A stretch of DNA of 64,000 bases from assembly GCF_030384885.1 (NCBI RefSeq), contig NZ_CP128613.1; one strand, 5' to 3'. This document shows, piece by piece, positions 8,491-64,000 of the stretch; the stretch's first letter is position 1; each line of letters opens with the position of its first letter. The notes beneath the pieces are model-generated. The model was not told where the DNA came from and did not search any database. It saw nothing but the letters and a program-made list of their open reading frames with translations. The stretch is from Escherichia coli (GTDB taxonomy: Bacteria > Pseudomonadota > Gammaproteobacteria > Enterobacterales > Enterobacteriaceae). Made by a program: the position numbers and the translations under genes.

Positions 8491-9135
8491 ATGGCTCGCA
8501 CAAAACTGAAATTCCGGCTGCATCGGGCAGTGATTGTCCTGTTCTGTCTTGCCTTGTTAGTGGCGCTGATGCAGGGGGCATCATGGTTTAGTCAAAACCA
8601 CCAGCGACAGCGTAATCCGCAGCTGGAAGAACTGGCCCGCACCCTGGCGCGGCAGGTGACGCTGAACGTTGCACCGCTGATGCGTACCGACTCACCGGAT
8701 GAAAAACGCATTCAGGCGATCCTCGATCAGTTAACGGATGAAAGCCGTATCCTCGACGCGGGTGTGTATGACGAACAAGGCGATCTTATCGCACGTTCTG
8801 GCGAAAGCGTCGAAGTGCGCGACCGGCTGGCGCTCGACGGTAAAAAAGCGGGCGGCTATTTTAACCAGCAGATTGTCGAACCCATTGCAGGGAAAAATGG
8901 TCCGCTTGGCTATCTGCGCCTGACGCTCGACACCCATACGCTCGCCACCGAAGCTCAACAGGTGGATAACACCACTAACATTTTACGCCTGATGTTGTTG
9001 CTCTCGCTGGCAATCGGCGTAGTGCTGACCCGCACGCTGCTACAGGGTAAACGCACCCGCTGGCAGCAATCCCCCTTCCTGTTAACCGCCAGCAAACCGG
9101 TGTCGGAAGAGGAAGAAAGCGAGAAAAAAGAGTGA
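8491..9135 (+). CDS. ytjB: Inner-membrane protein YtjB (Smp)
   Basis: 214-aa ORF with N-terminal transmembrane segment, in the conserved position between serB and lplA. Confidence 0.85.
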   Translation: MARTKLKFRLHRAVIVLFCLALLVALMQGASWFSQNHQRQRNPQLEELARTLARQVTLNVAPLMRTDSPDEKRIQAILDQLTDESRILDAGVYDEQGDLIARSGESVEVRDRLALDGKKAGGYFNQQIVEPIAGKNGPLGYLRLTLDTHTLATEAQQVDNTTNILRLMLLLSLAIGVVLTRTLLQGKRTRWQQSPFLLTASKPVSEEEESEKKE

Positions 9136-9162
9136 CCCATTACTACAAGAAAGGAAATCGTT

Positions 9163-10179
9163 ATGTCCACATTACGCCTGCTCATCTCTGACTCTTACGA
9201 TCCGTGGTTTAACCTGGCGGTGGAGGAGTGTATTTTTCGCCAGATGCCCGCCACGCAGCGCGTTTTGTTTCTCTGGCGCAATGCCGACACGGTAGTGATT
9301 GGTCGCGCGCAGAACCCGTGGAAAGAGTGTAATACCCGGCGGATGGAAGAAGATAACGTTCGCCTGGCACGGCGCAGTAGCGGTGGCGGCGCGGTGTTCC
9401 ACGATCTCGGCAATACCTGTTTTACCTTCATGGCTGGCAAGCCGGAATACGATAAAACGATCTCCACCTCGATTGTGCTCAATGCACTGAACGCGCTCGG
9501 TGTCAGCGCCGAAGCGTCCGGACGTAACGATTTGGTGGTGAAAACCGCCGAAGGCGACCGTAAAGTCTCAGGCTCGGCCTATCGCGAAACCAAAGATCGT
9601 GGCTTCCATCACGGCACCTTGCTACTCAATGCCGACCTTAGCCGCCTGGCAAACTATCTCAACCCGGATAAAAAGAAACTGGCGGCGAAAGGCATTACGT
9701 CGGTACGTTCCCGCGTGACCAATCTGACCGAATTGCTGCCGGGAATTACCCACGAGCAGGTTTGCGAAGCCATAACCGAGGCCTTTTTCGCCCATTATGG
9801 CGAGCGTGTAGAAGCGGAAATTATCTCCCCGGACAAAACGCCGGACTTGCCGAACTTCGCCGAAACCTTTGCCCGCCAGAGTAGCTGGGAATGGAATTTC
9901 GGACAGGCTCCAGCGTTCTCGCATCTGCTGGATGAACGCTTTACCTGGGGCGGCGTAGAACTGCATTTCGACGTCGAAAAAGGCCATATCACCCGCGCCC
10001 AGGTGTTTACCGATAGCCTCAACCCCGCACCTCTGGAAGCTCTCGCCGGACGACTGCAAGGCTGCCTGTACCGCGCTGACATGCTGCAACAAGAGTGTGA
10101 AGCGCTGTTGGTTGACTTCCCTGAACAGGAAAAAGAGCTAAGGGAGTTGTCGACGTGGATGGCAGGGGCGGTGCGGTAA
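9163..10179 (+). CDS. lplA: Lipoate-protein ligase A
   Basis: 338-aa ORF beginning [25 protein letters not shown]...; synteny. Confidence 0.93.
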
Positions 10180-10210
10180 CTCGCTGATTAAAATATCCAG
10201 GGAAGGAAAT

Positions 10211-10474
10211 ATGATCGATCTGAAGAACCAGGAACGGGAGATTATCAATTTAATGTTCAGCCAGGGTATATCCTGGCTAACCGCCGTGCGTATCAGGCAT
10301 AAACTATCACTTGCTGAAGTTAGTAAAATGTTGGGTATCTCGATTAATTCTCTAAAACAAATCGAAAAGACGGAACGGCTTAGTTCAAACATCAAAAACA
10401 AAATGGCAGGAATTTATGGTTGTCTGCCAGAGTTGCTGATATGCCCTTACTGGATGACGGCTGAACATAAATGA
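10211..10474 (+). CDS. Small XRE-type HTH protein, possibly a remnant of or replacement for yjjJ
   Basis: 87-aa ORF with an RBS-like GGAAGGAAAT before the ATG and a helix-turn-helix (LSLAEVSKMLGISINSLKQIEK). It sits where K-12 has the roughly 1.3-kb HipA-like gene yjjJ; the lplA–deoD gap here is only about 455 bp. Confidence 0.4.
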   Translation: MIDLKNQEREIINLMFSQGISWLTAVRIRHKLSLAEVSKMLGISINSLKQIEKTERLSSNIKNKMAGIYGCLPELLICPYWMTAEHK

Positions 10475-10572
10475 ATAGATTCGTGAATAGATACTCGAAT
10501 GGATTTAATTTTCTATCCATATGAAAAATAATAGTGAATCTATAAATCAGTTGCTATTGATGAATAAATACT

Positions 10573-10601
10573 AAAAAGCCGGAGCGGTCTCCCGCTCCGG
10601 C
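10573..10601 (-). terminator. Rho-independent terminator of the deo operon (downstream of deoD)
   Basis: GC-rich hairpin GCCGGAGCGG-TCT-CCCGCTCCGGC followed by a U-tract on the minus strand. Confidence 0.7.
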
Positions 10602-10634
10602 TTCACACGACAATCGCCTTTCAGCGAAACACAA

Positions 10635-11354
10635 TTACTCTTTATCGCCCAGCAGAACGGATTCCAGTGCGATTTTGATCATGTCGTTGAAGGTGGTCTG
10701 ACGCTCAGCGGCAGTGGTCTGCTCGTGAGTGCGGATGTGGTCAGACACGGTGCAGATGGTCAGGGCTTTCGCGCCGAATTCTGCAGCGACGCCGTAGATA
10801 CCAGCAGCTTCCATTTCCACACCGAGAATGCCGTATTTTTCCATCACGTCGAACATTTCGCCGTCCGGAGAGTAGAACAGGTCAGCGGAGAACAGGTTAC
10901 CAACGCGCGCATCAATGCCCAGTGCTTTAGCTGCATCTACTGCGTTACGCACCATGTCGAAGTCAGCGATAGCTGCAAAGTCATGGTCTTTAAAACGGAT
11001 GCGGTTAACTTTGGAATCGGTGCAGGCACCCATACCAATCACTACGTCACGCAGTTTTACGTGCGGCAGAACTGCACCACAGGAACCAACGCGAATGATT
11101 TTCTTCACGCCGAAATCGGTGATCAGTTCTTTAGTGTAGATGGAGCAGGACGGGATACCCATACCGTGGCCCATTACAGAAATTTTGCGGCCTTTGTAAG
11201 TACCGGTGAAGCCCAGCATACCGCGAACGTTGTTCACTTCACGAGCATCTTCAAGGAAAGTTTCAGCAATATACTTCGCACGCAGCGGGTCGCCTGGCAT
11301 CAAAACTACGTCAGCGAAATCGCCCATTTCTGCATTAATGTGTGGAGTAGCCAT
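10635..11354 (-). CDS. deoD: Purine nucleoside phosphorylase DeoD
   Basis: 239 aa from [17 protein letters not shown]...; the track ORF is N-terminally over-extended. Confidence 0.95.
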
Positions 11355-11410
11355 CATTTTATCCTTTTTGTGACATATTAAAGGCGGAGTCACTGCTCCG
11401 CCCAAATCCA

Positions 11411-12655
<1,245 letters not shown>

Positions 12656-12685
12656 TCAAATTTAAATGATCAGATCAGTATACCG

Positions 12686-14008
12686 TTATTCGCTGATACG
12701 GCGATAGACAGTCGGTGTGCTTTCCGGTGCTTTATCGGCAAGTTTAATTGCCGCTTTCACCGCTTTCGCCGCTTCCTGCCAGCTGTTTTCGTCTTTCGCG
12801 TGGATAACCGCCAGCGGACGCTGACCGTCTACCTGGTCGCCCAGACGCGCCATATCAGTAAAGCCGACGCTGTAATCGATGGTGTCAGATGCCTGACGGC
12901 GACCGCCGCCCATTGCAACCACTGCCATTCCCAGCGCGCGGGTATCCATTTCACTGACAAAACCTTCGGTATCAGCATAGACTGCTTTCGTCAGCATCGC
13001 TGTCGGCAGATACTTCGCGTAGTTCTCAACGAAGTCGGTCGGGCCTTTTTGTGCCGCTACCATACGACCAAAGACTTCTGCCGCTTTACCGTTGTCCAGC
13101 ACCGCCTGCAATTTCGCGCGCGCTTCGGCGTCATCTTTCGCCAGTTTGCCGGAGATCAACATCTCCACGCACAGTGCCATCGTGACATCAAACAGACGCG
13201 GGTTACGATACTCACCAGTCAGGAACTGCACCGCTTCACGAACTTCAACCGCGTTACCGGCACTGGAGGCCAGCACCTGATTCATGTCGGTGAGTAGCGC
13301 GGTGGTGCGCACGCCAGCACCGTTAGCCACGCCAACAATCGCTTCGGCAAGGGCTTCAGAGAGTTCGTAGGTCGGCATAAACGCGCCGCTACCGACTTTC
13401 ACGTCCATCACCAGCGCATCCAGACCTTCCGCCAGTTTCTTCGCCAGGATCGAGGCGGTGATAAGCGGGATGGAATCCACGGTTGCGGTAATGTCGCGGG
13501 TCGCATAGAAACGTTTATCCGCCGGAGCCAGCGAGCTGGTCTGGCCGATAATCGCCACGCCAACATCTTTAATAATTTCGCGGAAACGGTTGTCATCCGG
13601 GAAGATGTCGAAGCCAGGGATGGATTCCAGTTTGTCGAGCGTACCGCCAGTATGGCCGAGGCCGCGACCGGAGATCATCGGAATATAGCCGCCGCAGGCA
13701 GCCACCATCGGCCCTAACATCAGCGAAGTCACATCGCCGACGCCGCCGGTGGAGTGTTTATCAACAATCGGGCCATTCAGATGCAGGCTTTTCCAGTCGA
13801 GAACGGTTCCTGAATCTCGCATCGCCATGGTCAGCGAGACACGCTCCGGCATTGTCATATCGTGGAAGAAAATGGTCATCGCGAGGGCGGCAATCTGCCC
13901 TTCGGAGATAGTGTTGTCGCGAATGCCGTTGATAAAGAAGCGAATTTCTTCATCGCTCAGCGCATGACCATCACGTTTTTTACGAATAATTTCTTGTGCG
14001 AGAAACAA
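12686..14008 (-). CDS. deoA: Thymidine phosphorylase DeoA
   Basis: 440-aa ORF beginning [29 protein letters not shown]... Confidence 0.95.
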
Positions 14009-14147
14009 GGTAACCTCCCGTGGAATAAGTTTGAAGGCGTTGTTGCCAGATGGCGGATGTTGTTATTGCCTGATGCAATGCTGACGCATCTTATCAGGCC
14101 TACAGGGGTACTCGACCCATAGCATCCACCCTCTGGCAAAAGGCAGC

Positions 14148-14927
14148 TTAGTAGCTGCTGGCGCTCTTACCGTCGCCGTGGCCCAGCGCTTTCAGCAGGC
14201 TTGCCAGCAGGCTGGAAGCACCAAAGCGGTAGTGACGCGCATCAGCCCAGTCAGCACCGAACAGTTCATCTGCAATCGCGAGATATTTCTGCGCATCTTC
14301 CGCAGTACGCACGCCGCCCGCCGGTTTGAAACCAACGGTTTTCTCTACGCCCATATCACGGATCACTTCCATCATGATGCGCGCGCTTTCCGGCGTCGCG
14401 TTCACTGCTACTTTACCGGTAGAGGTTTTGATGAAATCAGCACCCGCTTTAATGGATATTTCAGACGCTTTGCGGATCAGCGCTTCGTCTTTCAGTTCGC
14501 CGGTTTCGATGATCACTTTCAGCAGTACATTCGCTGCTGCGCAAGCCTCTTTACAGGCTTTCACCAGATCAAAACCAACCTGCTCGTTACCCGCCATCAG
14601 TGCACGGTACGGGAACACCACATCAACTTCATCGGCACCGTAGGCGATTGCCGCACGGGTTTCTGCCAGCGCGATTTCGATGTCGTCGTTACCGTGTGGG
14701 AAGTTAGTTACCGTAGCGATACGGATTTCCGGGGTGCCCTGCTCTTTCAGCGTTTTGCGAGCAATCGGGATAAAGCGAGGATAGATACAGATAGCGGCGG
14801 TATTACCGACCGGAGTTTTGGCCTGATGACACAGAGCGATCACTTTCTCGTCGGTATCGTCGTCATTCAGGGTGGTCAGGTCCATCAATTTCAGTGCACG
14901 CAGGCTGCTTGCTTTCAGATCAGTCAT
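14148..14927 (-). CDS. deoC: Deoxyribose-phosphate aldolase DeoC
   Basis: 259 aa from [26 protein letters not shown]... Confidence 0.95.
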
Positions 14928-14971
14928 TTCATTCTCCTGGCTTGTCGCCAATAAAATTCACCTTGCGAGTT

Positions 14972-14987
14972 TGTTAGTATTCTAACA
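14972..14987. promoter_or_regulatory. DeoR operator, promoter-proximal
   Basis: TGTTAGTATTCTAACA, one mismatch from the DeoR palindrome TGTTAGAA/TTCTAACA, 45 bp upstream of the deoC start. Confidence 0.6.
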
Positions 14988-15185
14988 TCGACTCCGCAAC
15001 ACACTTCGATATACATCACAATTAAGGAAATCTACTTACAAAATTGCATTACTGTAATGCGATCTGGTTCAAATAATTCACTTTCAAATGAATGCGTCAG
15101 TGGTGGCAAACGCATCAGGATCAAAGTGAACATCACGAAACTTCTTACAATGGCGCATCACCTTCGGCATAAAAAGGAACAGAAG

Positions 15186-16736
15186 ATGCCCACTTCTCAT
15201 GAAAATGCACTGCAACAACGTTGCCAGCAAATTGTCACCAGTCCGGTACTTAGCCCGGAGCAGAAGCGCCATTTTCTGGCGCTGGAAGCAGAAAACAATC
15301 TGCCTTACCCACAGCTTCCTGCCGAAGCCCGCCGCGCGCTGGATGAAGGTGTAATCTGCGATATGTTTGAAGGTCATGCGCCGTATAAACCGCGCTATGT
15401 CTTACCCGATTACGCCCGTTTTTTGGCCAACGGTTCCGAATGGCTGGAGCTGGAAGGCGCAAAAGATCTTGATGACGCACTCTCTCTGCTGACCATTCTT
15501 TACCACCACGTTCCTTCGGTCACATCGATGCCGGTCTACCTGGGGCAACTGGATGCGTTGTTGCAACCGTATGTTAGAATTCTAACACAAAACGAGATCG
15601 ATATTCGAATAAAACGTTTCTGGCGTTACCTCGACAGAACCCTGCCAGATGCCTTTATGCACGCCAATATTGGCCCGTCTGATTCGCCCATTACCCGTGC
15701 GATTTTACGGGCAGATTCAGAGCTGAAGCAGGTTTCACCTAACCTGACTTTTATCTACGATCCTGAAATCACCCCTGATGACCTGCTGCTGGAAGTGGCG
15801 AAAAACATCTGTGAATGTAGCAAACCGCACATCGCCAACGGTCCCGTGCATGATAAAATTTTCACAAATGGGGGCTACGGGATTGTGAGCTGTTACAACT
15901 CACTGCCGCTGGCGGGTGGTGGCAGTACGCTGGTACGCCTTAACCTGAAAGCCATTGCCGAGCGCAGCGAATCGCTGGATGACTTCTTTGCGCGCACTCT
16001 ACCGCACTACTGCCAGCAGCAGATCGCCATCATCGATGCGCGGTGTGAATTCCTCTATCAACAATCACACTTCTTTGAGAATAGCTTCCTGGTGAAAGAA
16101 GGGCTGATTAACCCTGAACGTTTTGTGCCAATGTTTGGCATGTATGGGCTGGCGGAAGCGGTTAACTTGCTGTGTGAAAAAGAAGGAGTTGCCGCGCGTT
16201 ACGGTAAAGAAGCCGCCGCAAATGAAGTGGGTTATCGCATTAGCGCGCAACTGGCGGAGTTTGTCGCCAATACCCCCGTGAAATATGGCTGGCAAAAACG
16301 CGCCATGTTACACGCACAGTCGGGGATAAGTTCCGATATCGGCACCACGCCGGGCGCGCGTTTGCCGTATGGCGATGAGCCAGATCCGATCACCCATCTG
16401 CAAACTGTCGCCCCGCATCATGCTTATTATTATTCCGGCATCAGCGACATTTTGACGCTCGACGAAACCATCAAACGTAATCCGCAGGCGCTGGTACAGC
16501 TTTGCCTCGGTGCCTTTAAAGCCGGAATGCGTGAATTTACCGCCAATGTCAGCGGTAACGATCTGGTTCGCGTTACCGGTTATATGGTGCGTTTGTCGGA
16601 TTTAGAAAAATATCGTGCCGAAGGTTCACGTACCAATACCACCTGGCTGGGAGAAGAAGCCGCACGCAACACTCGTATTCTGGAACGCCAGCCGCGCGTT
16701 ATAAGCCATGAACAGCAGATGCGCTTTAGTCAGTAA
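15186..16736 (+). CDS. yjjI: Glycyl-radical-enzyme-like protein YjjI
   Basis: 516 aa from [11 protein letters not shown]...; C-terminal RVTGY glycyl-radical-type motif; immediately followed by a radical-SAM activase gene. Confidence 0.85.
15573..15588. promoter_or_regulatory. DeoR operator, distal, perfect palindrome
   Basis: Perfect 16-bp palindrome TGTTAGAATTCTAACA, 601 bp from the proximal operator, consistent with the dual-promoter, looped deo control region; it lies inside the annotated yjjI reading frame. Confidence 0.6.
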
Positions 16737-17571
16737 GATTATCCCCTTCTCCTGCGTTGACGGGCCAGGTAGTCGTCTGGCTCTGTTTTTACAGGGCTGT
16801 AATCTGCGCTGCAAAAACTGTCACAATCCGTGGACAATGGGGCGCTGTAATGATTGCGGGGAGTGCGTGCCACAGTGTCCGCATCAGGCGTTGCAGATTG
16901 TTAACAGCAAAGTAGTGTGGAACGCAGCCGTCTGCGAGCAGTGTGATACCTGCCTGAAGATGTGTCCACAACATGCCACGCCAATGGCGCAATCCATGAA
17001 CGTGGACGAGGTGCTTAGTCACGTCCGCAAAGCGGTGCTGTTTATTGAAGGGATAACGGTAAGCGGCGGTGAAGCCACGACCCAGTTGCCGTTTGTGGTG
17101 GCGCTGTTTACTGCTATCAAAAATGATCCACAACTGTGTCATCTCACCTGTCTGGTGGACAGTAACGGCATGTTGAGCGAAACCGGCTGGGAAAAATTAC
17201 TCCCGGTGTGCGACGGCGCGATGCTCGATCTCAAAGCGTGGGGAAGCGAATGTCATCAACAGCTAACCGGACGCGATAATCAGCAGATTAAGCGCAGCAT
17301 CTGTTTGCTTGCAGAGCGCGGTAAGCTGGCGGAACTGCGTTTGCTGGTAATCCCTGGCCAGGTGGATTATTTGCAACACATCGAAGAACTGGCGGCGTTT
17401 ATCAAGGGACTTGGCGATGTTCCGGTACGCCTGAACGCGTTTCATGCCCACGGCGTGTATGGCGAGGCGCAAAGCTGGGCGAGCGCCACGCAGGAAGACG
17501 TTGAGCAGTTGGCTGATGCGTTACGGGAGCGCGGGGTGAGCCGGTTGATATTTCCGGCGCTGTATTTGTGA
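16708..17571 (+). CDS. yjjW: Glycyl-radical enzyme activating protein YjjW (radical SAM)
   Basis: CxxxCxxC radical-SAM motif (CNLRCKNC) plus two ferredoxin-like Cys clusters; 287 aa; overlaps the yjjI stop. Confidence 0.88.
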
Positions 17572-17572
17572 C

Positions 17573-17800
17573 ATGCCGGATGCGGCCTACGGTTCGGCAC
17601 AGACTTGTAGGCATGATAAAACGCGTCAAGCGTCGCATCAGGCATTGTGCGCCAACTGCCGGATGCGGCGTGAACGCCTTATCCGGCCTACGGTTCGGCA
17701 CAGACTTGTAGGCATGATAAGACGCGTCAGCGTCGCATCAGGCATTGTGCGTCGACTGCCGGATGCGGCGTGAACGCCTTATCCGGCTTACGAAGGGCAA
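17573..17800. repeat. REP/BIME cluster
   Basis: Two near-identical copies of a roughly 95-bp unit containing GCCGGATGCGGCGTGAACGCCTTATCCGGCCTAC palindromic elements. Confidence 0.8.
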
Positions 17801-17801
17801 A

Positions 17802-18584
17802 CTACCCACGAACGTTAAACACCGCATACGTGTTATTAAGCAACACTTCGGCAATCTCATCCGCGGGTTCCGGGCGTAACTCGCATAGCACGGCAAACAC
17901 ACGGGCGGCCTGCTCCGGGTGATTAGGCTGCCCCTGAAAACCATTGAGCGGCATATCCGGCGCGTCGGTTTCCAGCAACAACGATGCCAGCGGCAGCTTT
18001 GCGATGACATCGCGGGTTTTACTGGCGCGTGGATAGGTGATAGTACCGCCTACGCCAATTTTGTAGCCCAGCTGCACAAACCGTTCGGCCTGTTGCAGGC
18101 TGCCAGAAAAACCATGAACCACACCAGTGCGTGGCAAATTTTGGCGTTTAAGATGCATCGCCAGTTTGTCGTGCGTGCGCCGTGAATGAAGGATCACCGG
18201 CAGATCGTAGCGTTTCGCCAGTTTCAGTTGTTCATCAAGCAACCACTGCTGCCTCTCAAATTGCGGATCGTCACCAAAGAGATCCAGGCCGATCTCCCCC
18301 ACCGCCACCACCTTCGTCGGACGTCTTCCCAACGCCTGCTGTAACTGATCCAGCGATGCATCGTTATGTTTTTCCAACATCCCCGGATGCAACCCTAAAG
18401 CGGCATACAGCGGTTGATAATTTTCCGCTAACGCCTGCACGCGGGCAAAATTTGCCGCCTCGGTGGCCGGAACAATGATCTTGCCTACGCCCGCTTGTGC
18501 CGCGCGTTGCAGGCTGGCCTCTTCATCGCCACTAAACGGCGGGAAATCAAAATGGCAGTGGGTGTCGATAAAACGGCAAGTCAA
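17802..18584 (-). CDS. yjjV: TatD-family metal-dependent DNase/hydrolase YjjV
   Basis: 260-aa ORF with TatD-like HxH start (FIDTHCHFDFPPF); synteny. Confidence 0.85.
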   Translation of the reverse strand: MTCRFIDTHCHFDFPPFSGDEEASLQRAAQAGVGKIIVPATEAANFARVQALAENYQPLYAALGLHPGMLEKHNDASLDQLQQALGRRPTKVVAVGEIGLDLFGDDPQFERQQWLLDEQLKLAKRYDLPVILHSRRTHDKLAMHLKRQNLPRTGVVHGFSGSLQQAERFVQLGYKIGVGGTITYPRASKTRDVIAKLPLASLLLETDAPDMPLNGFQGQPNHPEQAARVFAVLCELRPEPADEIAEVLLNNTYAVFNVRG

Positions 18585-19654
18585 GCCAAATCCTCATTGT
18601 TAAATGTCGGGTCGTTCGCCTGTGGAGCGTCTATCACCTCGGCAACCAGCGTATCGTTGGCGACGGGCGCAGGCGGAATAACGATCGACTCCGGCGTCAC
18701 CACCGGCACCAGATGGCGGCTCAGCGGCGCTTTTTCAGTCAATAACTTACCGACCGTTGCCAGAAAATAACGCCCGCATAAACGCCCAAGTTTATAGTCT
18801 TCACGCAGCGCCGGAATCCGACTGCCGAGCGCGATACTATGTAATGGCTTCGGCGGATAAATTTCGAATATCCGCAGCTTGCCCGGTGGTTTCTCAATAA
18901 ATTGCTGAATCTCACGATAGCTGGTTTCATGATGCTGCACCAGATTGACCAGCGGCTGCAGGCTACTGTCACCCAGCCAGCGTTCCATGCGTTTGAACCA
19001 CTGTGGCGTGTAGTACATTTGTGACGGCACAGTGCGGATGACGACCAACGTTTTTGCTCCCTGCCTTGCCGCCTCTTTAACCGGGATCGCATCACTGATC
19101 CCACCATCCAGGTAGTTAATACCTTCCAGCGACACTCCGCTACGATAAAAGCCAGGTATCGCACTGGAGGCGCGAATCACATCCAGCCAGTTCTGTTTGT
19201 TTGGCAAAAAGTAATTCGGCGCATAGTCATCCTGACGACAAGCGCACATATAAAACGATTTGCCGCTGTCAAATAGCCGCGCTGCGGTGTCCATTTGCAA
19301 CGGCATCTGGCTTGCGGTGGCCTCCACCAGCCAGTCGAGATCGATAAGATTTCCTCCACGGACAAAGCGCAATGGATCGAAAAATTCGCGTTTTGTGGTA
19401 TAGCGCATGATGACTTTGCGCGCGTAACCGGGCTGATTGCAGATATACGCCGAGAGGTTCTGCGCCCCGGCAGATGTGCCGAGATAAAGATCGAAAGGAT
19501 TAAACTGCGCGCGCATAAACTCATCCAGCACGCCAGCTGTGAAAATTCCACGCTGCCCGCCGCCTTCGCACACCAGAGCTATTCGTCCAGGCTGGAACGG
19601 CCTTAGCGACAACGGCGCAATATTACCAAGCGTTACAGGTATTCGCTGCCCCAC
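18581..19654 (-). CDS. yjjU: Patatin-like phospholipase YjjU
   Basis: Patatin motifs GGGxRG (CEGGGQRGIFTAG) and GTSAG; start probably an internal GTG (track ORF extends to 19690). Confidence 0.8.
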   Translation of the reverse strand: MGQRIPVTLGNIAPLSLRPFQPGRIALVCEGGGQRGIFTAGVLDEFMRAQFNPFDLYLGTSAGAQNLSAYICNQPGYARKVIMRYTTKREFFDPLRFVRGGNLIDLDWLVEATASQMPLQMDTAARLFDSGKSFYMCACRQDDYAPNYFLPNKQNWLDVIRASSAIPGFYRSGVSLEGINYLDGGISDAIPVKEAARQGAKTLVVIRTVPSQMYYTPQWFKRMERWLGDSSLQPLVNLVQHHETSYREIQQFIEKPPGKLRIFEIYPPKPLHSIALGSRIPALREDYKLGRLCGRYFLATVGKLLTEKAPLSRHLVPVVTPESIVIPPAPVANDTLVAEVIDAPQANDPTFNNEDLA

Positions 19655-58374: not shown

Positions 58375-58535
58375 CAGCGTTTACTCCCGGTTAACCACCG
58401 GGAGCCTTCCACTGACTCAATAGAAACTTTCCCCCTCAGTAAATATTTACCAGTCTGATTTTGCAGTAAAAATCTATTGTTTCAGTACGTTGCGAAAGCG
58501 ATAATAGAGGCTTAGCAATGAGGAAGGCATATCTT

Positions 58536-59915
58536 ATGGAATCTATTCAACCCTGGATTGAAAAATTTATTAAGCAAGCACAGCAACAACGTTCGCAATC
58601 CACTAAAGATTATCCAACGTCTTACCGTAACCTGCGAGTAAAATTGAGTTTCGGTTATGGTAATTTTACGTCTATTCCCTGGTTTGCATTTCTTGGAGAA
58701 GGTCAGGAAGCTTCTAACGGTATATATCCCGTTATTCTCTATTATAAAGATTTTGATGAGTTGGTTTTGGCTTATGGTATAAGCGACACGAATGAACCAC
58801 ATGCCCAATGGCAGTTCTCTTCAGACATACCTAAAACAATCGCAGAGTATTTCCAGGCAACTTCAGGTGTATATCCTAAAAAATACGGACAGTCCTATTA
58901 CGCCTGTTCCCAAAAAGTCTCACAGGGTCTTGATTATACCCGGTTTGCCTCCATGCTGGACAACATAATCAACGACTATAAATTAATATTTAATTCTGGC
59001 AAGAGTGTTATTCCACCTATGTCAAAAACTGAATCATACTGTCTGGAAGATGCGTTAAATGATTTGTTTATCCCTGAAACCACGATAGAGACGATACTCA
59101 AACGATTAACCATCAAAAAAAATATTATCCTCCAGGGGCCGCCCGGCGTTGGAAAAACCTTTGTTGCACGCCGTCTGGCTTACTTGCTGACAGGGGAAAA
59201 GGCTCCGCAACGCGTCAATATGGTTCAGTTCCATCAATCTTATAGCTATGAGGATTTTATACAGGGCTATCGTCCGAATGGTGTCGGCTTCCGACGTAAA
59301 GACGGTATATTTTACAATTTTTGTCAGCAAGCTAAAGAGCAGCCAGAGAAAAAGTATGTTTTTATTATAGATGAAATCAATCGTGCCAATCTCAGTAAAG
59401 TATTTGGCGAAGTGATGATGTTAATGGAACATGATAAACGAGGTGAAAACTGGTCTGTTCCCTTAACCTACTCCGAAAACGATGAAGAACGATTCTATGT
59501 TCCGGAGAATGTTTATATTATCGGTTTAATGAATACTGCCGATCGCTCTCTGGCCGTTGTTGATTATGCCCTGCGCAGACGATTTTCTTTCATAGATATT
59601 GAGCCAGGTTTTGATACGCCACAGTTCCGGAATTTTTTACTGAATAAAAAAGCAGAACCTTCATTTGTTGAATCTTTATGCCAAACAATGAACGAGTTAA
59701 ACCAGGAAATCAGCAAAGAGGCCACTATCCTTGGGAAAGGATTCCGCATTGGGCATAGTTACTTCTGCTCCGGGTTGGAAGATGGCACATCTCCTGATAC
59801 GCAATGGCTTAAGGAAATTGTGATGACGGATATCGCCCCTTTACTCGAAGAATATTTCTTTGATGATCCCTATAAACAACAGATATGGACCGACAAATTA
59901 TTAGGTGACTCATAG
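58536..59915 (+). CDS. mcrB: McrB, GTP-dependent 5-methylcytosine-specific restriction subunit (AAA+)
   Basis: 459 aa from MESIQPWIEKFIKQAQQQRS...; Walker A GPPGVGKT; AT-rich coding sequence. Confidence 0.93.
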   Translation: MESIQPWIEKFIKQAQQQRSQSTKDYPTSYRNLRVKLSFGYGNFTSIPWFAFLGEGQEASNGIYPVILYYKDFDELVLAYGISDTNEPHAQWQFSSDIPKTIAEYFQATSGVYPKKYGQSYYACSQKVSQGLDYTRFASMLDNIINDYKLIFNSGKSVIPPMSKTESYCLEDALNDLFIPETTIETILKRLTIKKNIILQGPPGVGKTFVARRLAYLLTGEKAPQRVNMVQFHQSYSYEDFIQGYRPNGVGFRRKDGIFYNFCQQAKEQPEKKYVFIIDEINRANLSKVFGEVMMLMEHDKRGENWSVPLTYSENDEERFYVPENVYIIGLMNTADRSLAVVDYALRRRFSFIDIEPGFDTPQFRNFLLNKKAEPSFVESLCQTMNELNQEISKEATILGKGFRIGHSYFCSGLEDGTSPDTQWLKEIVMTDIAPLLEEYFFDDPYKQQIWTDKLLGDS

Positions 59916-60961
59916 TGGAACAGCCCGTGATACCTGTCCGTAATATCTATTACATGCTTACCTATGCATGGGGTTATTTACAGGAAATTAAGCAGGCCGA
60001 CCTTGAAGCCATTCCCGGTAACAATCTTCTTGATATCCTGGGGTATGTATTAAATAAAGGGGTTTTACAGCTTTCACGCCGAGGGCTTGAGCTTGATTAC
60101 AATCCTAATACAGAAATCATTCCTGGCATCAAAGGGCGAATAGAGTTTGCTAAAACAATACGCGGCTTCCATCTTAATCATGGGAAAACCGTCAGTACGT
60201 TTGATATGCTTAATGAAGACACGCTGGCTAACCGAATTATAAAAAGCACATTAGCCATGTTAATTAAGCATGAAAAGTTAAACTCAGCCATCAGAGATGA
60301 AGCTCGTTCACTTTATAGAAAATTACCGGGCATTAGCACTCTTCATTTAACTCCACAGCATTTCAGCTATCTGAATGGCGGAAAAAATACGCGTTATTAT
60401 AAATTCGTTATAAGTGTCTGCAAGTTCATCGTCAATAATTCTATTCCAGGTCAAAACAAAGGACACTACCGTTTCTATGATTTTGAAAGAAACGAAAAAG
60501 AGATGTCATTACTTTATCAAAAGTTTCTTTATGAATTTTGCCGCCGTGAATTAACGTCTGCAAACACAACCCGCTCTTATTTAAAATGGGATGCATCGAG
60601 CATATCGGATCAGTCACTTAATTTGTTACCTCGAATGGAAACTGACATCACCATTCGCTCATCAGAAAAAATACTTATCGTTGACGCCAAATACTATAAG
60701 AGCATTTTTTCACGACGAATGGGCTCAGAAAAATTTCATTCTCAAAATCTTTATCAACTGATGAATTACTTATGGTCGTTAAAGCCTGAAAATGGCGAAA
60801 ACATAGGGGGCTTATTAATATACCCCCACGTAGATACCGCAGTGAAACATCGTTATAAAATTAATGGCTTCGATATTGGCTTGTGTACCGTCAATTTAGG
60901 TCAGGAATGGCCGTGTATACATCAAGAATTACTCGACATTTTCGGTGAATATCTCAAATAA
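59915..60961 (+). CDS. mcrC: McrC, nuclease subunit of McrBC
   Basis: 348-aa ORF starting at a GTG that overlaps the mcrB stop; PD-(D/E)xK-like C-terminal region (...IVDAKYYK...). Confidence 0.92.
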   Translation: MEQPVIPVRNIYYMLTYAWGYLQEIKQADLEAIPGNNLLDILGYVLNKGVLQLSRRGLELDYNPNTEIIPGIKGRIEFAKTIRGFHLNHGKTVSTFDMLNEDTLANRIIKSTLAMLIKHEKLNSAIRDEARSLYRKLPGISTLHLTPQHFSYLNGGKNTRYYKFVISVCKFIVNNSIPGQNKGHYRFYDFERNEKEMSLLYQKFLYEFCRRELTSANTTRSYLKWDASSISDQSLNLLPRMETDITIRSSEKILIVDAKYYKSIFSRRMGSEKFHSQNLYQLMNYLWSLKPENGENIGGLLIYPHVDTAVKHRYKINGFDIGLCTVNLGQEWPCIHQELLDIFGEYLK

Positions 60962-61017
60962 GCGGTAAGTTTTATAGAAAATACCGCTCCCGACACCACA
61001 TCGGGAGCGGCTCATCA

Positions 61018-61353
61018 TCAGGAGGCGATCACCTCCACCAGCACATCCGTTGCCCAGCTCTCTTCACTGTTGACCACATTCCCTTCCTGACAAGCTTGAT
61101 CCATTTTGACTAACTGGAAAGAAACGTCATCGCGGAAATCAAAGTAATGCCATTGCGATGAAAAGTTGATGCGCCAGTAGCCCATCCCCTGATCGAAGCG
61201 GATCTTCAATACCTGACCATCCTCAAAAGTCACCGTCAGTTTACGATGGTGAGGGATATCGCGCGGCGAGTCGAACACCGTCAGTTCTACCGGCCTGCCC
61301 AGCGCAGCAGCAAACCACTGATCAGCGAAATCCTGAAAATCCGCTATGCTCAT
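61018..61353 (-). CDS. Hypothetical protein, downstream member of a coupled gene pair
   Basis: 111-aa ORF whose ATG overlaps the stop of the upstream 277-aa ORF (ATGA overlap); no motif I can recognise. Confidence 0.4.
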
Positions 61354-62183
61354 CCAGTCATGGAAAGGCCGGTTAGCAGTCCATTCAAAAAATGCGTTCC
61401 TGTTTCATCATCTAACGGTATTGGAAACTCGCTTCGCCAGGTAGGGTGAACCTTATCAAGCTGTTGTACTGGTTCTTTGTGATTTATTAGGTTGTGAGTA
61501 AGTACTAAGGAATTGAGGTTATCAGCCATATGACTGATAAGTTCTACAGAGGTATCTTCGCTAAAAACAGTAGGCAGCGCTGATTTTTCTATGACAGCTC
61601 TTGCCAGCGAAAGGGCTGAAAAACCTGACTGCTTTGCTTGCTCATATTGTCCAAGGATCCTGGAGAAAACAGCCAGAAAGCGACTGTCTGATTCTTTGAG
61701 TAGCCGGAAAGGTAAACCACCTTCACTGAATAATGTTCCGAGAAAATTGCGTCGTTCAGATTCATAAAATCGAATTGGGCGCAGCCAGTAATCTTCCATC
61801 CCTTTCGGTACGATAGTACCAAGCTCTGTGGCGGTGAATGAAATCCCTATTTTTTTATATATAGGGTCCCACGTCCATCCGCATTGCCGTTCATAATCCC
61901 TGCGGTACCACTCAGAGCAAAAAAGAACAAAACAGGCAGCAAAGTCCCTATTACATATATTAGATTGTGATTGACCGACTGCACGGAGTAGCTGCGTTAA
62001 TTGGGTATATTCATCATTGGTTGCATGATATTCATAAAGAGGACGGCCATCCGGTTGTCTCAACCCTCTAAGATTCACAAAGTTACTTAGCCAGGAAGTA
62101 CATTTTACCCATGAAATGTATTCTGATTGACCCAAAGCAAGCTCCTTAGAGATAAAAGATACAAAAACAAAACCCCACAACAT
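61350..62183 (-). CDS. Hypothetical protein, upstream member of a coupled gene pair (may correspond to part of the K-12 yjiV/yjiT pseudogene region)
   Basis: 277-aa ORF convergent with mcrC; weak RBS; preceded by a markedly AT-rich spacer of about 460 bp. Confidence 0.4.
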
Positions 62184-62643
62184 TTCTAATTTGAAAGAAA
62201 ACCTTTCAGAATATTGTATAGTTACTCAGGCGGCAACAACTATTTTTTCAGGTCGATACTATAAATCAATTTTAGATAAAAATGATATCAACCATCTATT
62301 AATCACAACTCATTTATCACCTGATTTTATAATTTCAAATGAAAATAAATCTCAAACAATCAAAAAGTATTCAGTAGCTGACATTTAACTTTCCAGGATA
62401 TAAAACAATTAGAGAAACTGCACAATAGCGAATAATGAGAGTTGTAAAGTCAGTCAAAAAACACAAGTAATCACTGTGCGTTTTTTGACCGTTATCGACA
62501 TGAGTTTAAAGAGGTTAGTGAAGAAGATATTCCTGTACACTCCATACCTATTGATGAATTGTCTCGGGAAAATTTTTATAACTTAATATAAAAACATAAA
62601 AACGTTTTATTATATATAAATCTATATCCCCCCTCACTCCACA

Positions 62644-62808
62644 TCCTCCCTGCGTAACCCGATATCCCTCAACCGCTCATCACTCATCTGCTGTAACACG
62701 CGTCGGGTCTGCATTTGCCGCCGCCAACGCCTCACCGCCTGCCAGAGTTGCACAAGGCCGATAAACGGCGCTTTAGCTCTGTTTTCGTGAAATTCCATCT
62801 GCTGCCTC
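62644..62808 (-). CDS. yjiS: DUF1127-family small protein YjiS
   Basis: Not in the supplied track (under 60 aa). Reverse-strand translation gives MEFHENRAKAPFIGLVQLWQAVRRWRRQMQTRRVLQQMSDERLRDIGLRREDVE (54 aa). Confidence 0.75.
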
Positions 62809-62974
62809 CTCATCTTTCAGAGGCTTCATCATCCGCCTTCTGGCAGTTCACAATACAGATGCAAATATTAGTTTTATTTAACATACAGACAGGTTAAAAC
62901 AACATCTGCATCCGGTTTTTTAGCCTCATCTGTACCGGTTTTTCTCTCTGTATGGTCCAAATAAGGAGTACAGC

Positions 62975-64000
62975 ATGACGCGTTATCAACATCTGGCGAC
63001 TCTGCTTGCCGAACGGATTGAGCAAGGGCTGTATCGTCACGGGGAGAAATTGCCGTCGGTGCGCAGCTTAAGTCAGGAGCACGGCGTCAGTATCAGCACC
63101 GTGCAGCAGGCGTATCAGACGCTGGAGACGATGAAGCTCATCACTCCGCAGCCGCGTTCGGGTTATTTTGTCGCACAACGTAAAGCCCAGCCGCCAGTAC
63201 CGCCGATGACGCGTCCGGTGCAGCGCCCGGTGGAAATTACCCAGTGGGATCAGGTGCTGGATATGCTGGAGGCGCATAGCGACAGTGCCATTGTTCCGTT
63301 AAGCAAAAGCACGCCGGATGTCGAAACGCCCAGCCTGAAACCGCTGTGGCGGGAGCTAAGCCGGGTGGTGCAGCATAATCTGCAAACCGTTCTCGGTTAT
63401 GACTTGTTAGCCGGTCAGCGAGTATTGCGAGAGCAGATTGCCCGCCTGATGCTCGACAGCGGCTCGGTGGTCACCGCCGATGACATCATCATCACCAGCG
63501 GCTGCCATAACTCGATGTCGCTGGCGTTAATGGCAGTGTGTAAACCGGGCGATATTGTCGCGGTCGAATCCCCCTGTTATTACGGTTCGATGCAGATGCT
63601 GCGCGGCATGGGCGTGAAAGTGATTGAAATCCCAACCGATCCAGAAACTGGCATCAGCGTTGAAGCGCTGGAACTCGCGCTGGAACAGTGGCCGATTAAA
63701 GGCATCATTCTGGTGCCAAACTGTAATAATCCGCTGGGATTTATTATGCCGGACGCACGCAAACGGGCCGTTCTCTCTCTCGCTCAGCGTCATGATATTG
63801 TGATTTTTGAAGATGATGTCTACGGCGAACTGGCGACGGAGTATCCGCGCCCGCGGACCATTCATTCCTGGGATATCGACGGGCGAGTGCTGTTGTGCAG
63901 CTCGTTCAGTAAAAGCATTGCACCAGGCCTGCGCGTGGGCTGGGTCGCGCCGGGACGTTATCACGATAAACTGCTGCATATGAAATATGCCATCAGCAGC
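62975..64000 (+). CDS. yjiR: MocR-family regulator YjiR (GntR HTH fused to aminotransferase-like PLP domain); 3' end beyond the window
   Basis: Not in the supplied track (no stop within the window). Translation from the ATG at 62975 gives MTRYQHLATLLAERIEQGLYRHGEKLPSVRSLSQEHGVSISTVQQAYQTLE... (GntR HTH), then an aminotransferase fold with SFSKSIAPGLRVGW (PLP-lysine motif); RBS AAGGAG upstream. Confidence 0.85.
   Translation, partial: MTRYQHLATLLAERIEQGLYRHGEKLPSVRSLSQEHGVSISTVQQAYQTLETMKLITPQPRSGYFVAQRKAQPPVPPMTRPVQRPVEITQWDQVLDMLEAHSDSAIVPLSKSTPDVETPSLKPLWRELSRVVQHNLQTVLGYDLLAGQRVLREQIARLMLDSGSVVTADDIIITSGCHNSMSLALMAVCKPGDIVAVESPCYYGSMQMLRGMGVKVIEIPTDPETGISVEALELALEQWPIKGIILVPNCNNPLGFIMPDARKRAVLSLAQRHDIVIFEDDVYGELATEYPRPRTIHSWDIDGRVLLCSSFSKSIAPGLRVGWVAPGRYHDKLLHMKYAISS

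Follow-up and report, generated by a model that had tools for sequence, protein, structure and literature searches.

The two minus-strand open reading frames (ORFs) that lie between mcrC and yjiS in the stretch of Escherichia coli DNA analyzed here (64,000 nucleotides, hereafter "the window") are, we conclude with high confidence, the inactivated remnant of a Druantia type III operon, druH-druE, represented in K-12 by yjiT-yjiV. The upstream ORF is a stump of druH, and the downstream ORF is the last 111 codons of druE; the two are joined out of frame across a deletion junction at 61374/61375. As to system, the pair is already known rather than uncharacterized. The only feature of the locus that merits follow-up is the druE-side breakpoint, which recurs to the nucleotide in other E. 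coli alleles.

The two ORFs and their homologues

The original prediction described a pair of minus-strand ORFs sharing an ATGA stop/start overlap, and both the ORF listing of the window and inspection of its sequence contain that pair (Table 1), with the TGA stop of the upstream ORF (ORF1) at 61352-61350 and the ATG start of the downstream ORF (ORF2) at 61353-61351. It was also right in describing the pair as convergent with mcrC, in assigning it to the slot that yjiT/yjiV occupies in K-12 between mcrC and yjiS, and in calling the mcrC-yjiS interval short (about 1.7 kb): the interval measures 1672 bp here, versus 4996 bp in K-12 and 10201 bp in a strain with an intact operon. GC content is approximately 51% in ORF2, 40-45% in ORF1, and approximately 30% in the upstream intergenic DNA of the window, the change falling at the ORF boundary; this step was the earliest clue that two distinct pieces of DNA had been joined.

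Table 1. Features of the druH-druE remnant and its flanks (window coordinates)
Feature	Coordinates	Strand	Basis or remark
mcrC, intact, 348 aa, convergent flank	59915..60961	+
Native intrinsic terminator of druE (13-bp stem, then T-run), between convergent druE and mcrC	60983..61011	-	Retained in the remnant
ORF2, 111 aa	61018..61353	-	ORF listing of the window
'druE tail, 358 nt: last base of codon 1996, codons 1997-2114, and native stop	61018..61375	-	DruE3 match
ORF1, 277 aa, druH' stump	61350..62183	-	DruH3, YjiT_fam, and 9tud matches; codon view
Seven aberrant codons plus TGA (druE codons 1997-2004, misframed)	61350..61373	-	Codon comparison with intact druH and druE
Deletion junction, TA in both parents	61374..61375	.	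blastn against L004 and K-12
druH-derived coding DNA, codons 1-254, TTG start at 62135	61376..62135	-	Annotated start of intact homologues
AT-rich intergenic region upstream of druH, 27-36% GC	62184..62633	-	99% identity to K-12
yjiS (DUF1127), conserved flank upstream of druH	62634..62798	-

The start codon used in ORF1 is probably TTG 62135 rather than ATG 62183, because the TTG is annotated as the start in intact homologues; the ATG lies 16 codons upstream of it. A Shine-Dalgarno-like AAGGAG is found at 62147-62142, and a product initiated at the TTG has 261 aa, not 277. The native druH promoter is presumably located within the AT-rich intergenic region, where a simple scan found no sigma-70 consensus upstream of druH.

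Neither product had been credited with a recognizable domain, and the pair had been put forward as having an uncharacterized function; profile searches instead return DruH and DruE, the two proteins of Druantia type III. ORF1 matches the PADLOC DruH3 profile (PDLC00049; E=7.1e-139) over positions 3-257 of 1100 only, and the NCBIfam model NF038336 (YjiT_fam, STY4851/ECs_5259) over positions 1-237 of 1090 only; at 340.4 bits, it exceeds the curated cutoff of that model (150 bits) as a fragment of a family member. It also aligns with the DruH structure (PDB 9tud_A; E=1.3e-19, chain residues 12-248 of 1119). In a blastp alignment, ORF1 residues 17-270 correspond to DruH/YjiT residues 1-254 of 1096, with 96.9% identity to intact DruH, and the last seven residues (TGLSMTG) are druE DNA read in the wrong frame. 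ORF2 matches the PADLOC DruE3 profile (PDLC00037; E=1.2e-21) over positions 1955-2053 of 2055 only. It comprises DruE residues 2004-2114 of 2114 at 95.5% identity, ends at the native stop, and, by residue position and the published domain order, represents the extreme C-terminal end of the DruE PLD region. The original view that these are not chance ORFs is borne out, both being strongly homologous to real proteins.

A Pfam-A scan of both ORFs gave no match even at E<=10. In precomputed tables, the same DruH N-terminal protein matches PF27201 (YjiT_N) and PF27205 (YjiT_2nd), and the null result evidently arises from a library older than these two families. A PDB search with ORF2 found nothing; even for intact DruE, the alignment with 9tu7 is confined to residues 5-2089. 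For Druantia type III, structures have been solved (9tud, DruH; 9tu7, DruE) and several mechanistic papers appeared in 2025-2026; published work already classes DruH with YjiT, a family known from the immigration control region (PMC13192584).

A deletion junction and the origin of the ATGA overlap

An intact operon occupies the same slot in strain 24AR0357 (locus L004), in the order mcrC, druE, druH/yjiT, yjiS. In L004 coordinates, druE (2114 aa) spans 9001-15345 and druH/yjiT (1096 aa) spans 15358-18648, separated by a 12-nt spacer (15346-15357), and both proteins are full length relative to the PADLOC profiles (DruE3 1-2053/2055; DruH3 1-1099/1100). When the mcrC-yjiS interval was compared by megablast with 5426 complete E. 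coli genomes, the query split at 61374/61375, the right part matching K-12 yjiT-yjiS (99.6%) and the left part matching the 3' end of a "helicase-related protein." Junction mapping by blastn resolved the window as L004 sequence up to 9358 (the druE tail) joined to sequence from 17887 onwards (druH, on the side of higher window coordinates), with a 2-bp TA microhomology at the junction. Compared with the intact L004 operon the window lacks 8528 bp, and compared with the yjiT/yjiV pseudogenes of K-12 it lacks 3322 bp.

The window ORFs derive from DruH and DruE of Druantia type III (subtype III-A; e.g., EDL933 OI-172, ATCC 8739), and the remnant keeps the collinear order of the operon (druH upstream of druE) and its strand. 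It still sits in its chromosomal slot within the immigration control region, between both native flanks (yjiS among them), and still ends with the original stop and terminator. The DruH part is 97% and the DruE part 95.5% identical to the intact E. coli allele, but only 23% of DruH and 5% of DruE remain, joined out of frame: a pseudogene scar rather than a system. Collinear with longer intact homologues, with essential domains lost and the frame disrupted, the locus has the features of a deletion remnant. The original hedge that the ORFs may be fragments of a decayed gene therefore comes close to the mark, as they are collinear pieces of intact druH and druE, adjacent and in the same order. 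Collinearity with one longer intact homologue had been named as an observation that would tell against an operon; two such genes were found rather than one, and the operon reading fails in spirit if not to the letter.

We propose that a single deletion took out the 3' part of druH (codons 255-1096), the spacer of 12 nt, and most of druE (codons 1-1996), its ends being joined out of frame at the TA microhomology. The parent would have been either an intact operon, with the loss of 8528 bp, or an array already resembling the K-12 pseudogenes, with the loss of 3322 bp.

Direct comparison with K-12 yjiT/yjiV (b4342/b4486), annotated by PGAP as incomplete genes for "protein YjiT" and "DEAD/DEAH box helicase," identified both window ORFs as pieces of the same ancestral operon at the same locus, the window being the smaller cousin. 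Identity to K-12 is 99.1-99.6% for the druH part and the region upstream of it, and the tail protein corresponds to the K-12 allele carrying three further replacements. K-12 keeps 503 druH codons and approximately 2.9 kb of druE and carries two internal deletions (L004 9788::11973 and 14113::17140), whereas the window has only one junction, located elsewhere, and is shorter by another 3322 bp. Other internal deletions of the operon have produced in-frame DruH::DruE fusions in LR-64-2 (921 aa) and in OZ547217/TB06053 (550 aa), the latter with a druE breakpoint exactly as in the window. The in-frame joins predict chimeric proteins, whereas the out-of-frame join of the window yields two ORFs. Such chimeras constitute an annotation trap, RefSeq calling them intact "STY4851/ECs_5259 family protein."

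The out-of-frame join also accounts for the ATGA. After DruH codon 254 (CTA), the misframed druE DNA reads ACC GGC CTT TCC ATG ACT GGA TGA; these bases in intact druE are read as GGT AAC CGG CCT TTC CAT GAC TGG ATG AGC, encoding G1996 to W2003, M2004, and S2005. Codon by codon, the ATGA is thus the internal Met2004-Ser2005 codons of DruE. The intact druH/druE boundary is the 12-nt spacer, approximately 6 kb upstream of the ATGA, so that in homologous loci the ATGA lies inside druE and not, as in a coupled gene pair, at the boundary of complete genes. The stop/start overlap is confined to alleles in which an out-of-frame junction or a frameshift lies just upstream. One allele has a plain frameshift and is read as 2003 + 111 aa.

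Translation from the native druH start would give 254 DruH residues and seven aberrant ones and would end at the TGA within ATG AGC; an ORF finder would then take the next ATG (Met2004) as the start of a 111-aa ORF that reaches the native druE stop and terminator. The ATGA serves as stop and start only through the wrong frame into which the deletion shifted the druH stump; the overlap thus results from the deletion and does not reflect evolved coupling. Any out-of-frame junction at the druE-side site yields the same overlap, which recurs in many unrelated alleles. We accordingly abandon the claim that the ATGA is evidence for a translationally coupled two-gene operon: it is internal to druE and becomes a stop/start only through the misframed stump. 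That a deletion alone can create such an overlap is a second trap for annotation.

Distribution of the allele and probable loss of function

The exact 277-aa product occurs on five Logan contigs, of which the four inspected match the window at 100% identity across 3-4.4 kb, and the same allele is present in at least four independent Logan assemblies. The pair is called as 261 + 111 aa in GCA_904842275.1 (on a 684-kb contig) and in further assemblies, the deposited products being CAD6047753.1, "Uncharacterised protein" (261 aa), and CAD6047769.1, "putative DEAD-box helicase-like protein." Junction sequence is identical in all eight loci compared. The exact window junction is absent from the 5426 complete E. 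coli genomes, approximately 12% of which (648) have any druE sequence here; most of the 3' half is present in no more than 283 of those 648. A metagenome scan for non-intact junctions (ATCCAGTCATGGAAAGGCCGGTTAD) gave 0 matches.

Only the gap in the complete-genome collection led us to consider that the ORF pair might be an artefact of assembly or annotation, such as a collapsed or chimeric contig, and nothing was found in favor of this idea. Independent assemblies in Logan, ENA, and NCBI, built from separate sequencing runs, agree on the junction at 100% identity, and it is therefore not an assembly artefact; sister junctions occur in the closed genomes HS-01, TB06053, and OZ547217. We regard an artefact as scarcely credible.

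In DruH, an N-terminal globular domain is followed by six Ig-like domains and a C-terminal domain; an ssDNA/ATP pocket lies at residues 670-1067, and defense is abolished when either the N-terminal domain or the remainder is present alone (10.64898/2026.05.12.722862). In DruE, residues 1-1723 (RecA core, eWH, OBZ, and MZB) are required for defense and the C-terminal PLDs are dispensable (10.64898/2026.05.13.724758). Neither protein is full length in the remnant, which has DruH residues 1-254 of 1096 (23%) and DruE residues 2004-2114 of 2114 (5%; 1997-2114 at the DNA level). Absent are the RecA1/2, eWH, OBZ, MZB (DUF1998), and Zn-binding parts of DruE and the Ig5/C-terminal ssDNA/ATP pocket of DruH. 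Because the helicase domains of DruE and the pocket of DruH are missing, we infer from the published truncation data that the remnant would not function in Druantia phage defense.

Some expression may persist. With the 5' region and the terminator both retained, transcription may still run between them, and the DruH N-terminal piece, judging from its PF27201 and PF27205 matches, could be produced and fold on its own. Decay of the druH' sequence has yet to show: two synonymous and one non-synonymous codon changes separate it from K-12, too few to be informative.

These retained elements raise the alternative of a selected two-gene module, in which the DruH N-terminal part, as a sensor, decoy, or regulator, is coupled to a small DruE C-terminal peptide. 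The domain matches, the native 5' region, Shine-Dalgarno sequence, and terminator would all suit such a module, as would the presence of the allele in at least eight assemblies and the recurrence in many genomes of a 111-aa ORF with an ATGA overlap. That recurrence, however, stems from a common breakpoint and not from conservation. The partners of the 111-aa ORF vary (druH stumps of 86-909 residues, internal fragments of druE, and mdtM), none of them being conserved; some alleles with the same junction site are in-frame fusions; and HS-01 keeps only approximately 264 bp of druH. Neither half of DruH defends alone, and with the exact junction in 0 of 5426 complete genomes the allele belongs to one minor lineage. 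We therefore consider a functional module highly improbable and retain the interpretation of the locus as an inactivated remnant.

The pair had been singled out as the most plausible place in the window for an uncharacterized function. As a fragment of a known Druantia type III system it loses that standing: the best candidate for an uncharacterized defense gene in the window is a dead piece of a described one, a result whose value is mainly negative, and efforts to clone the pair or challenge it with phage would be wasted.

A recurrent, base-precise breakpoint in druE

Sister junctions emerged first from the mapping of sister alleles and then from locating other alleles of the 111-aa product and mapping the junction in each. 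In gene orientation, the druE-side breakpoint (L004 9358; window 61375) reads CCCCGG|TAACCGGCC, and the right end |TAACCGGCC is common to 11 distinct deletion junctions in public E. coli assemblies. The first sisters to be found were those of TB06053/OZ547217, joined to druH at approximately 17351-17354, and HS-01, joined at approximately 18381-18386 with a 5-nt filler. Left partners of the 11 junctions are spread over 13.7 kb, and the deletions measure 0.6-13.7 kb. The partners lie in druE (L004 9984, 10353, and 10896), in druH (L004 15922, 17354, 17505, 17637, 17889 in the window, and 18381), and at two positions in mdtM, the latter representing deletions of approximately 13.7 kb that also removed druH, yjiS, yjiR, and rpnD.

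All 11 junctions are deletions, with no inversions. At 10 of them, the parental partner site starts with TA at the breakpoint, and the remaining one has the 5-nt filler; the homology reaches into the retained side and no other (TA, TAA, TAAC, TAACC, or TAACCG). At least five tail alleles are represented among the events. The haplotype switches at the junction both in the window and in HS-01: mcrC and the tail of the window differ by 2.1-2.6% from K-12 and L004, and the segment from druH' to yjiS differs by 0.4-0.9% from K-12. This common breakpoint explains why the overlap of an upstream stop with the start of the 111-aa ORF recurs in many genomes. The coincidence of 11 junctions at one nucleotide is not an ascertainment effect, because a junction anywhere in a stretch of approximately 60 nt would still have given a 111-aa ORF call.

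The microhomology of the window junction, just 2 bp (TA), is typical of illegitimate recombination, and other endpoints are in use at this locus (K-12 9788::11973 and 14113::17140; LR-64-2 10475::17353; the 242/299-aa alleles), as would be expected if the scar were a one-off, random microhomology-mediated deletion whose endpoint has no special property. Those other endpoints are represented by a single junction each; the right end of the 242/299-aa alleles lies 13-14 nt from the recurrent breakpoint. Against a random event, 11 junctions on at least five tail alleles end identically at |TAACCGGCC, 10 of the 11 microhomologies start exactly at the first retained base, and the chance that all 11 would fall on one nucleotide within approximately 60 nt is vanishingly small. 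A random deletion is thus improbable, and the scar in the window was most likely made by a site-favored process.

More tentatively, and with slightly less than even confidence, we suggest that the druE-side end is a nucleotide-precise, one-sided deletion hot spot at which at least 11 independent deletions, in different E. coli lineages, arose from a 3' end or break repeatedly created at a single phosphodiester bond. The pattern would fit joining or priming from a fixed 3' end, on the window plus strand ...GGCCGGTTA-3'. Such an end might stem from nicking or cutting at a specific site, from the cryptic end of a transposon or recombinase, or from a replication stall, after which end joining or template switching would complete the deletion. 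Processes of this general kind include microhomology-mediated (alternative) end joining, template switching by a polymerase whose 3' end is fixed, and deletion coupled to insertion sequence (IS) excision (IEE-type). Their likeness to the druE junctions lies in the invariant end, the 2-6 nt of homology at the terminal base, the occasional filler, and the restriction to deletions; no IS was seen at the junction site. To our knowledge, no agent creates a break or 3' end at CCCCGG|TAACCGG.

Several specific explanations were tried and set aside. The HS-01 junction, which has GCAGTCCAT in common with that of the window, finds no support as a derivative of it: the flanks are of a different haplotype, and a parental-type allele identifies the 5 nt as filler rather than allelic sequence. 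A cryptic IS end was sought by searching 72,556 plasmids (blastn) with the 61 nt that lie inside the fixed end, which returned only chance matches of approximately 19-25 nt, and no IS was seen exactly at the breakpoint among the mapped alleles. One ISApl1-like element lies 18 nt upstream of the breakpoint, in AP027474.1 only. IS5 (YTAR), IS608 (TTAC|), and integrons (G|TT) have target rules that do not match the partner sites. A BstEII-type site (GGTNACC) overlaps the break, but cutting there would leave ...GGTTAC, and the genome has >1000 such sites; we regard it as coincidence. DNA structure at the breakpoint is limited to a 4-bp CCGG hairpin (z-scores of -0.9 and +0.4). The sequence CCGGTAACCGG forms a quasi-palindrome there. 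The CCGGTTACCGG motif is not enriched elsewhere in the window. An Rpn nuclease, rpnD being approximately 3 kb away, was rejected on the published finding that RpnA shows no sequence specificity (PMC5350276).

We found no report of this breakpoint in the literature on yjiT/yjiV and the immigration control region. If the hot spot is real, a site-specific activity recurrently inactivates Druantia type III in natural E. coli while sparing the neighboring mcrBC, and the locus would provide a case of one-sided, microhomology-mediated deletion in the wild. If an activity that generates DNA ends does act there, it would offer a testable case of how systems are lost from defense islands.

Recurrent deletion endpoint in druE

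The base at which the druH stump (ORF1) is joined to the druE tail (ORF2) in the window is also the endpoint of other deletions. Eleven different deletions, ranging from 0.6 to 13.7 kb, have the druE endpoint /TAACCGGCC (the slash marking the break; window 61375, or position 9358 of L004, the intact druE-druH locus of strain 24AR0357), identical to the base; they come from loci L005, L006, L012, L013, L015, L019-L025, and L030. Their partner ends lie in druE, druH, and mdtM. Microhomology beginning with TA is found at 10 of the 11 junctions, and a 5-nt filler at the remaining one. No inversion at this endpoint was found among the junctions mapped in the loci examined, and no insertion sequence occupies the exact site in these loci. 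In L016, an IS30-family element resembling ISApl1, whose transposase carries HTH_38 and rve domains, interrupts druE; the hot-spot base lies 18 nt downstream of the insertion. A Chi octamer within ORF2 is probably without bearing on the breakpoint, because it would stop RecBCD arriving from mcrC but is in the wrong orientation to stop RecBCD coming from the junction.

Features of the immigration control region in the window and in compared loci (L-numbers)
Feature	Location	Strand	Record or product	Description
DruH::DruE chimera, LR-64-2	L003 6997-9762		WP_206746689.1, 921 aa	DruH 1-437 + DruE profile positions 1564-2054
DruH::DruE chimera, OZ547217	L012 1534-3186		WP_021558990.1, 550 aa	~432 DruH residues + last ~118 residues of DruE
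Chi octamer GCTGGTGG	window 61035-61042	- (druE sense strand)		inside ORF2
IS30-family element	L016 3028-3951		AP027474.1, GCA_036493855.1; 307-aa transposase	in druE
druE fragment, BL21(RP)	L002 9057-12419			last 3363 bp of druE
mcrB, 24AR0357	L004 6406-7686			annotated pseudogene

Chimeras and other broken druE alleles

Two E. coli records, LR-64-2 and OZ547217, encode proteins labeled in RefSeq as an intact "STY4851/ECs_5259 family protein", although both are in-frame deletion chimeras of DruH and DruE. The flanks of the two alleles are identical, and their druH-side breakpoints agree within 2 nt, a coincidence that hints at a second recurrent endpoint, GGACT/TAAAGC.

Other alleles are broken within druE. 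A frameshift in L014 (ENA ERZ27275915) yields ORFs of 2003 and 111 aa with an ATGA overlap like that of the window, and in L019 and L022 druE genes with internal deletions adjoin an intact 1096-aa druH. A widespread and more divergent arrangement (L031-L042) has DruE C-terminal ORFs of 242 and 299 aa, with yjiN, an rpn gene, and the druE C-terminal fragment beside mcrC, without mdtM, yjiR, yjiS, or druH; its internal druE deletion runs from about 10079 to 9346 of L004, the right end being 13-14 nt off the hot-spot base.

In the single BL21(RP) record examined, the immigration control region is more extensively rearranged: the terminal druE fragment abuts the mqo-yojI-alkB-ada region, and a truncated hsdS lies beside mokC/nhaA. 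The identical 3363-bp fragment, compared by itself, is also present in other BL21 derivatives and in E. coli C.

In 24AR0357, Druantia III is intact and mcrB is annotated as a pseudogene, whereas in the window mcrBC is intact (58518-59915 compared) and Druantia is destroyed. These opposite states may be a coincidence, since the comparison covers two genomes only.

ORF1 and the haplotype change at the junction

ORF1 probably does not begin at the ATG at 62183 that the ORF finder chose; in intact homologues the annotated start is a TTG (window 62135) with AAGGAG 6 nt upstream. An on-demand Pfam-A scan of the ORF1 protein (window 61353-62183) matched no family, a result of limited weight because the Pfam version differs from that of the precomputed tables, which assign PF27201 (YjiT_N) and PF27205 (YjiT_2nd) to an identical protein. 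The same tables place PF27116 (YjiV_N) on larger DruE N-terminal products in L013, L014, L016, and L023, and PF09369 (MZB) on those of the last three.

Haplotypes were compared across the junction (window 60000-61375 versus 61374-63000). The mcrC gene and druE tail diverge by about 2.1-2.6% from both K-12 and L004, with five private substitutions in ORF2, whereas the segment from the druH stump to yjiS differs by 0.4-0.9% from K-12. The haplotype of the window thus switches at the junction, and HS-01, which carries another deletion allele, exhibits the opposite pattern. A recombination or import event whose end lies at the junction could account for this switch.
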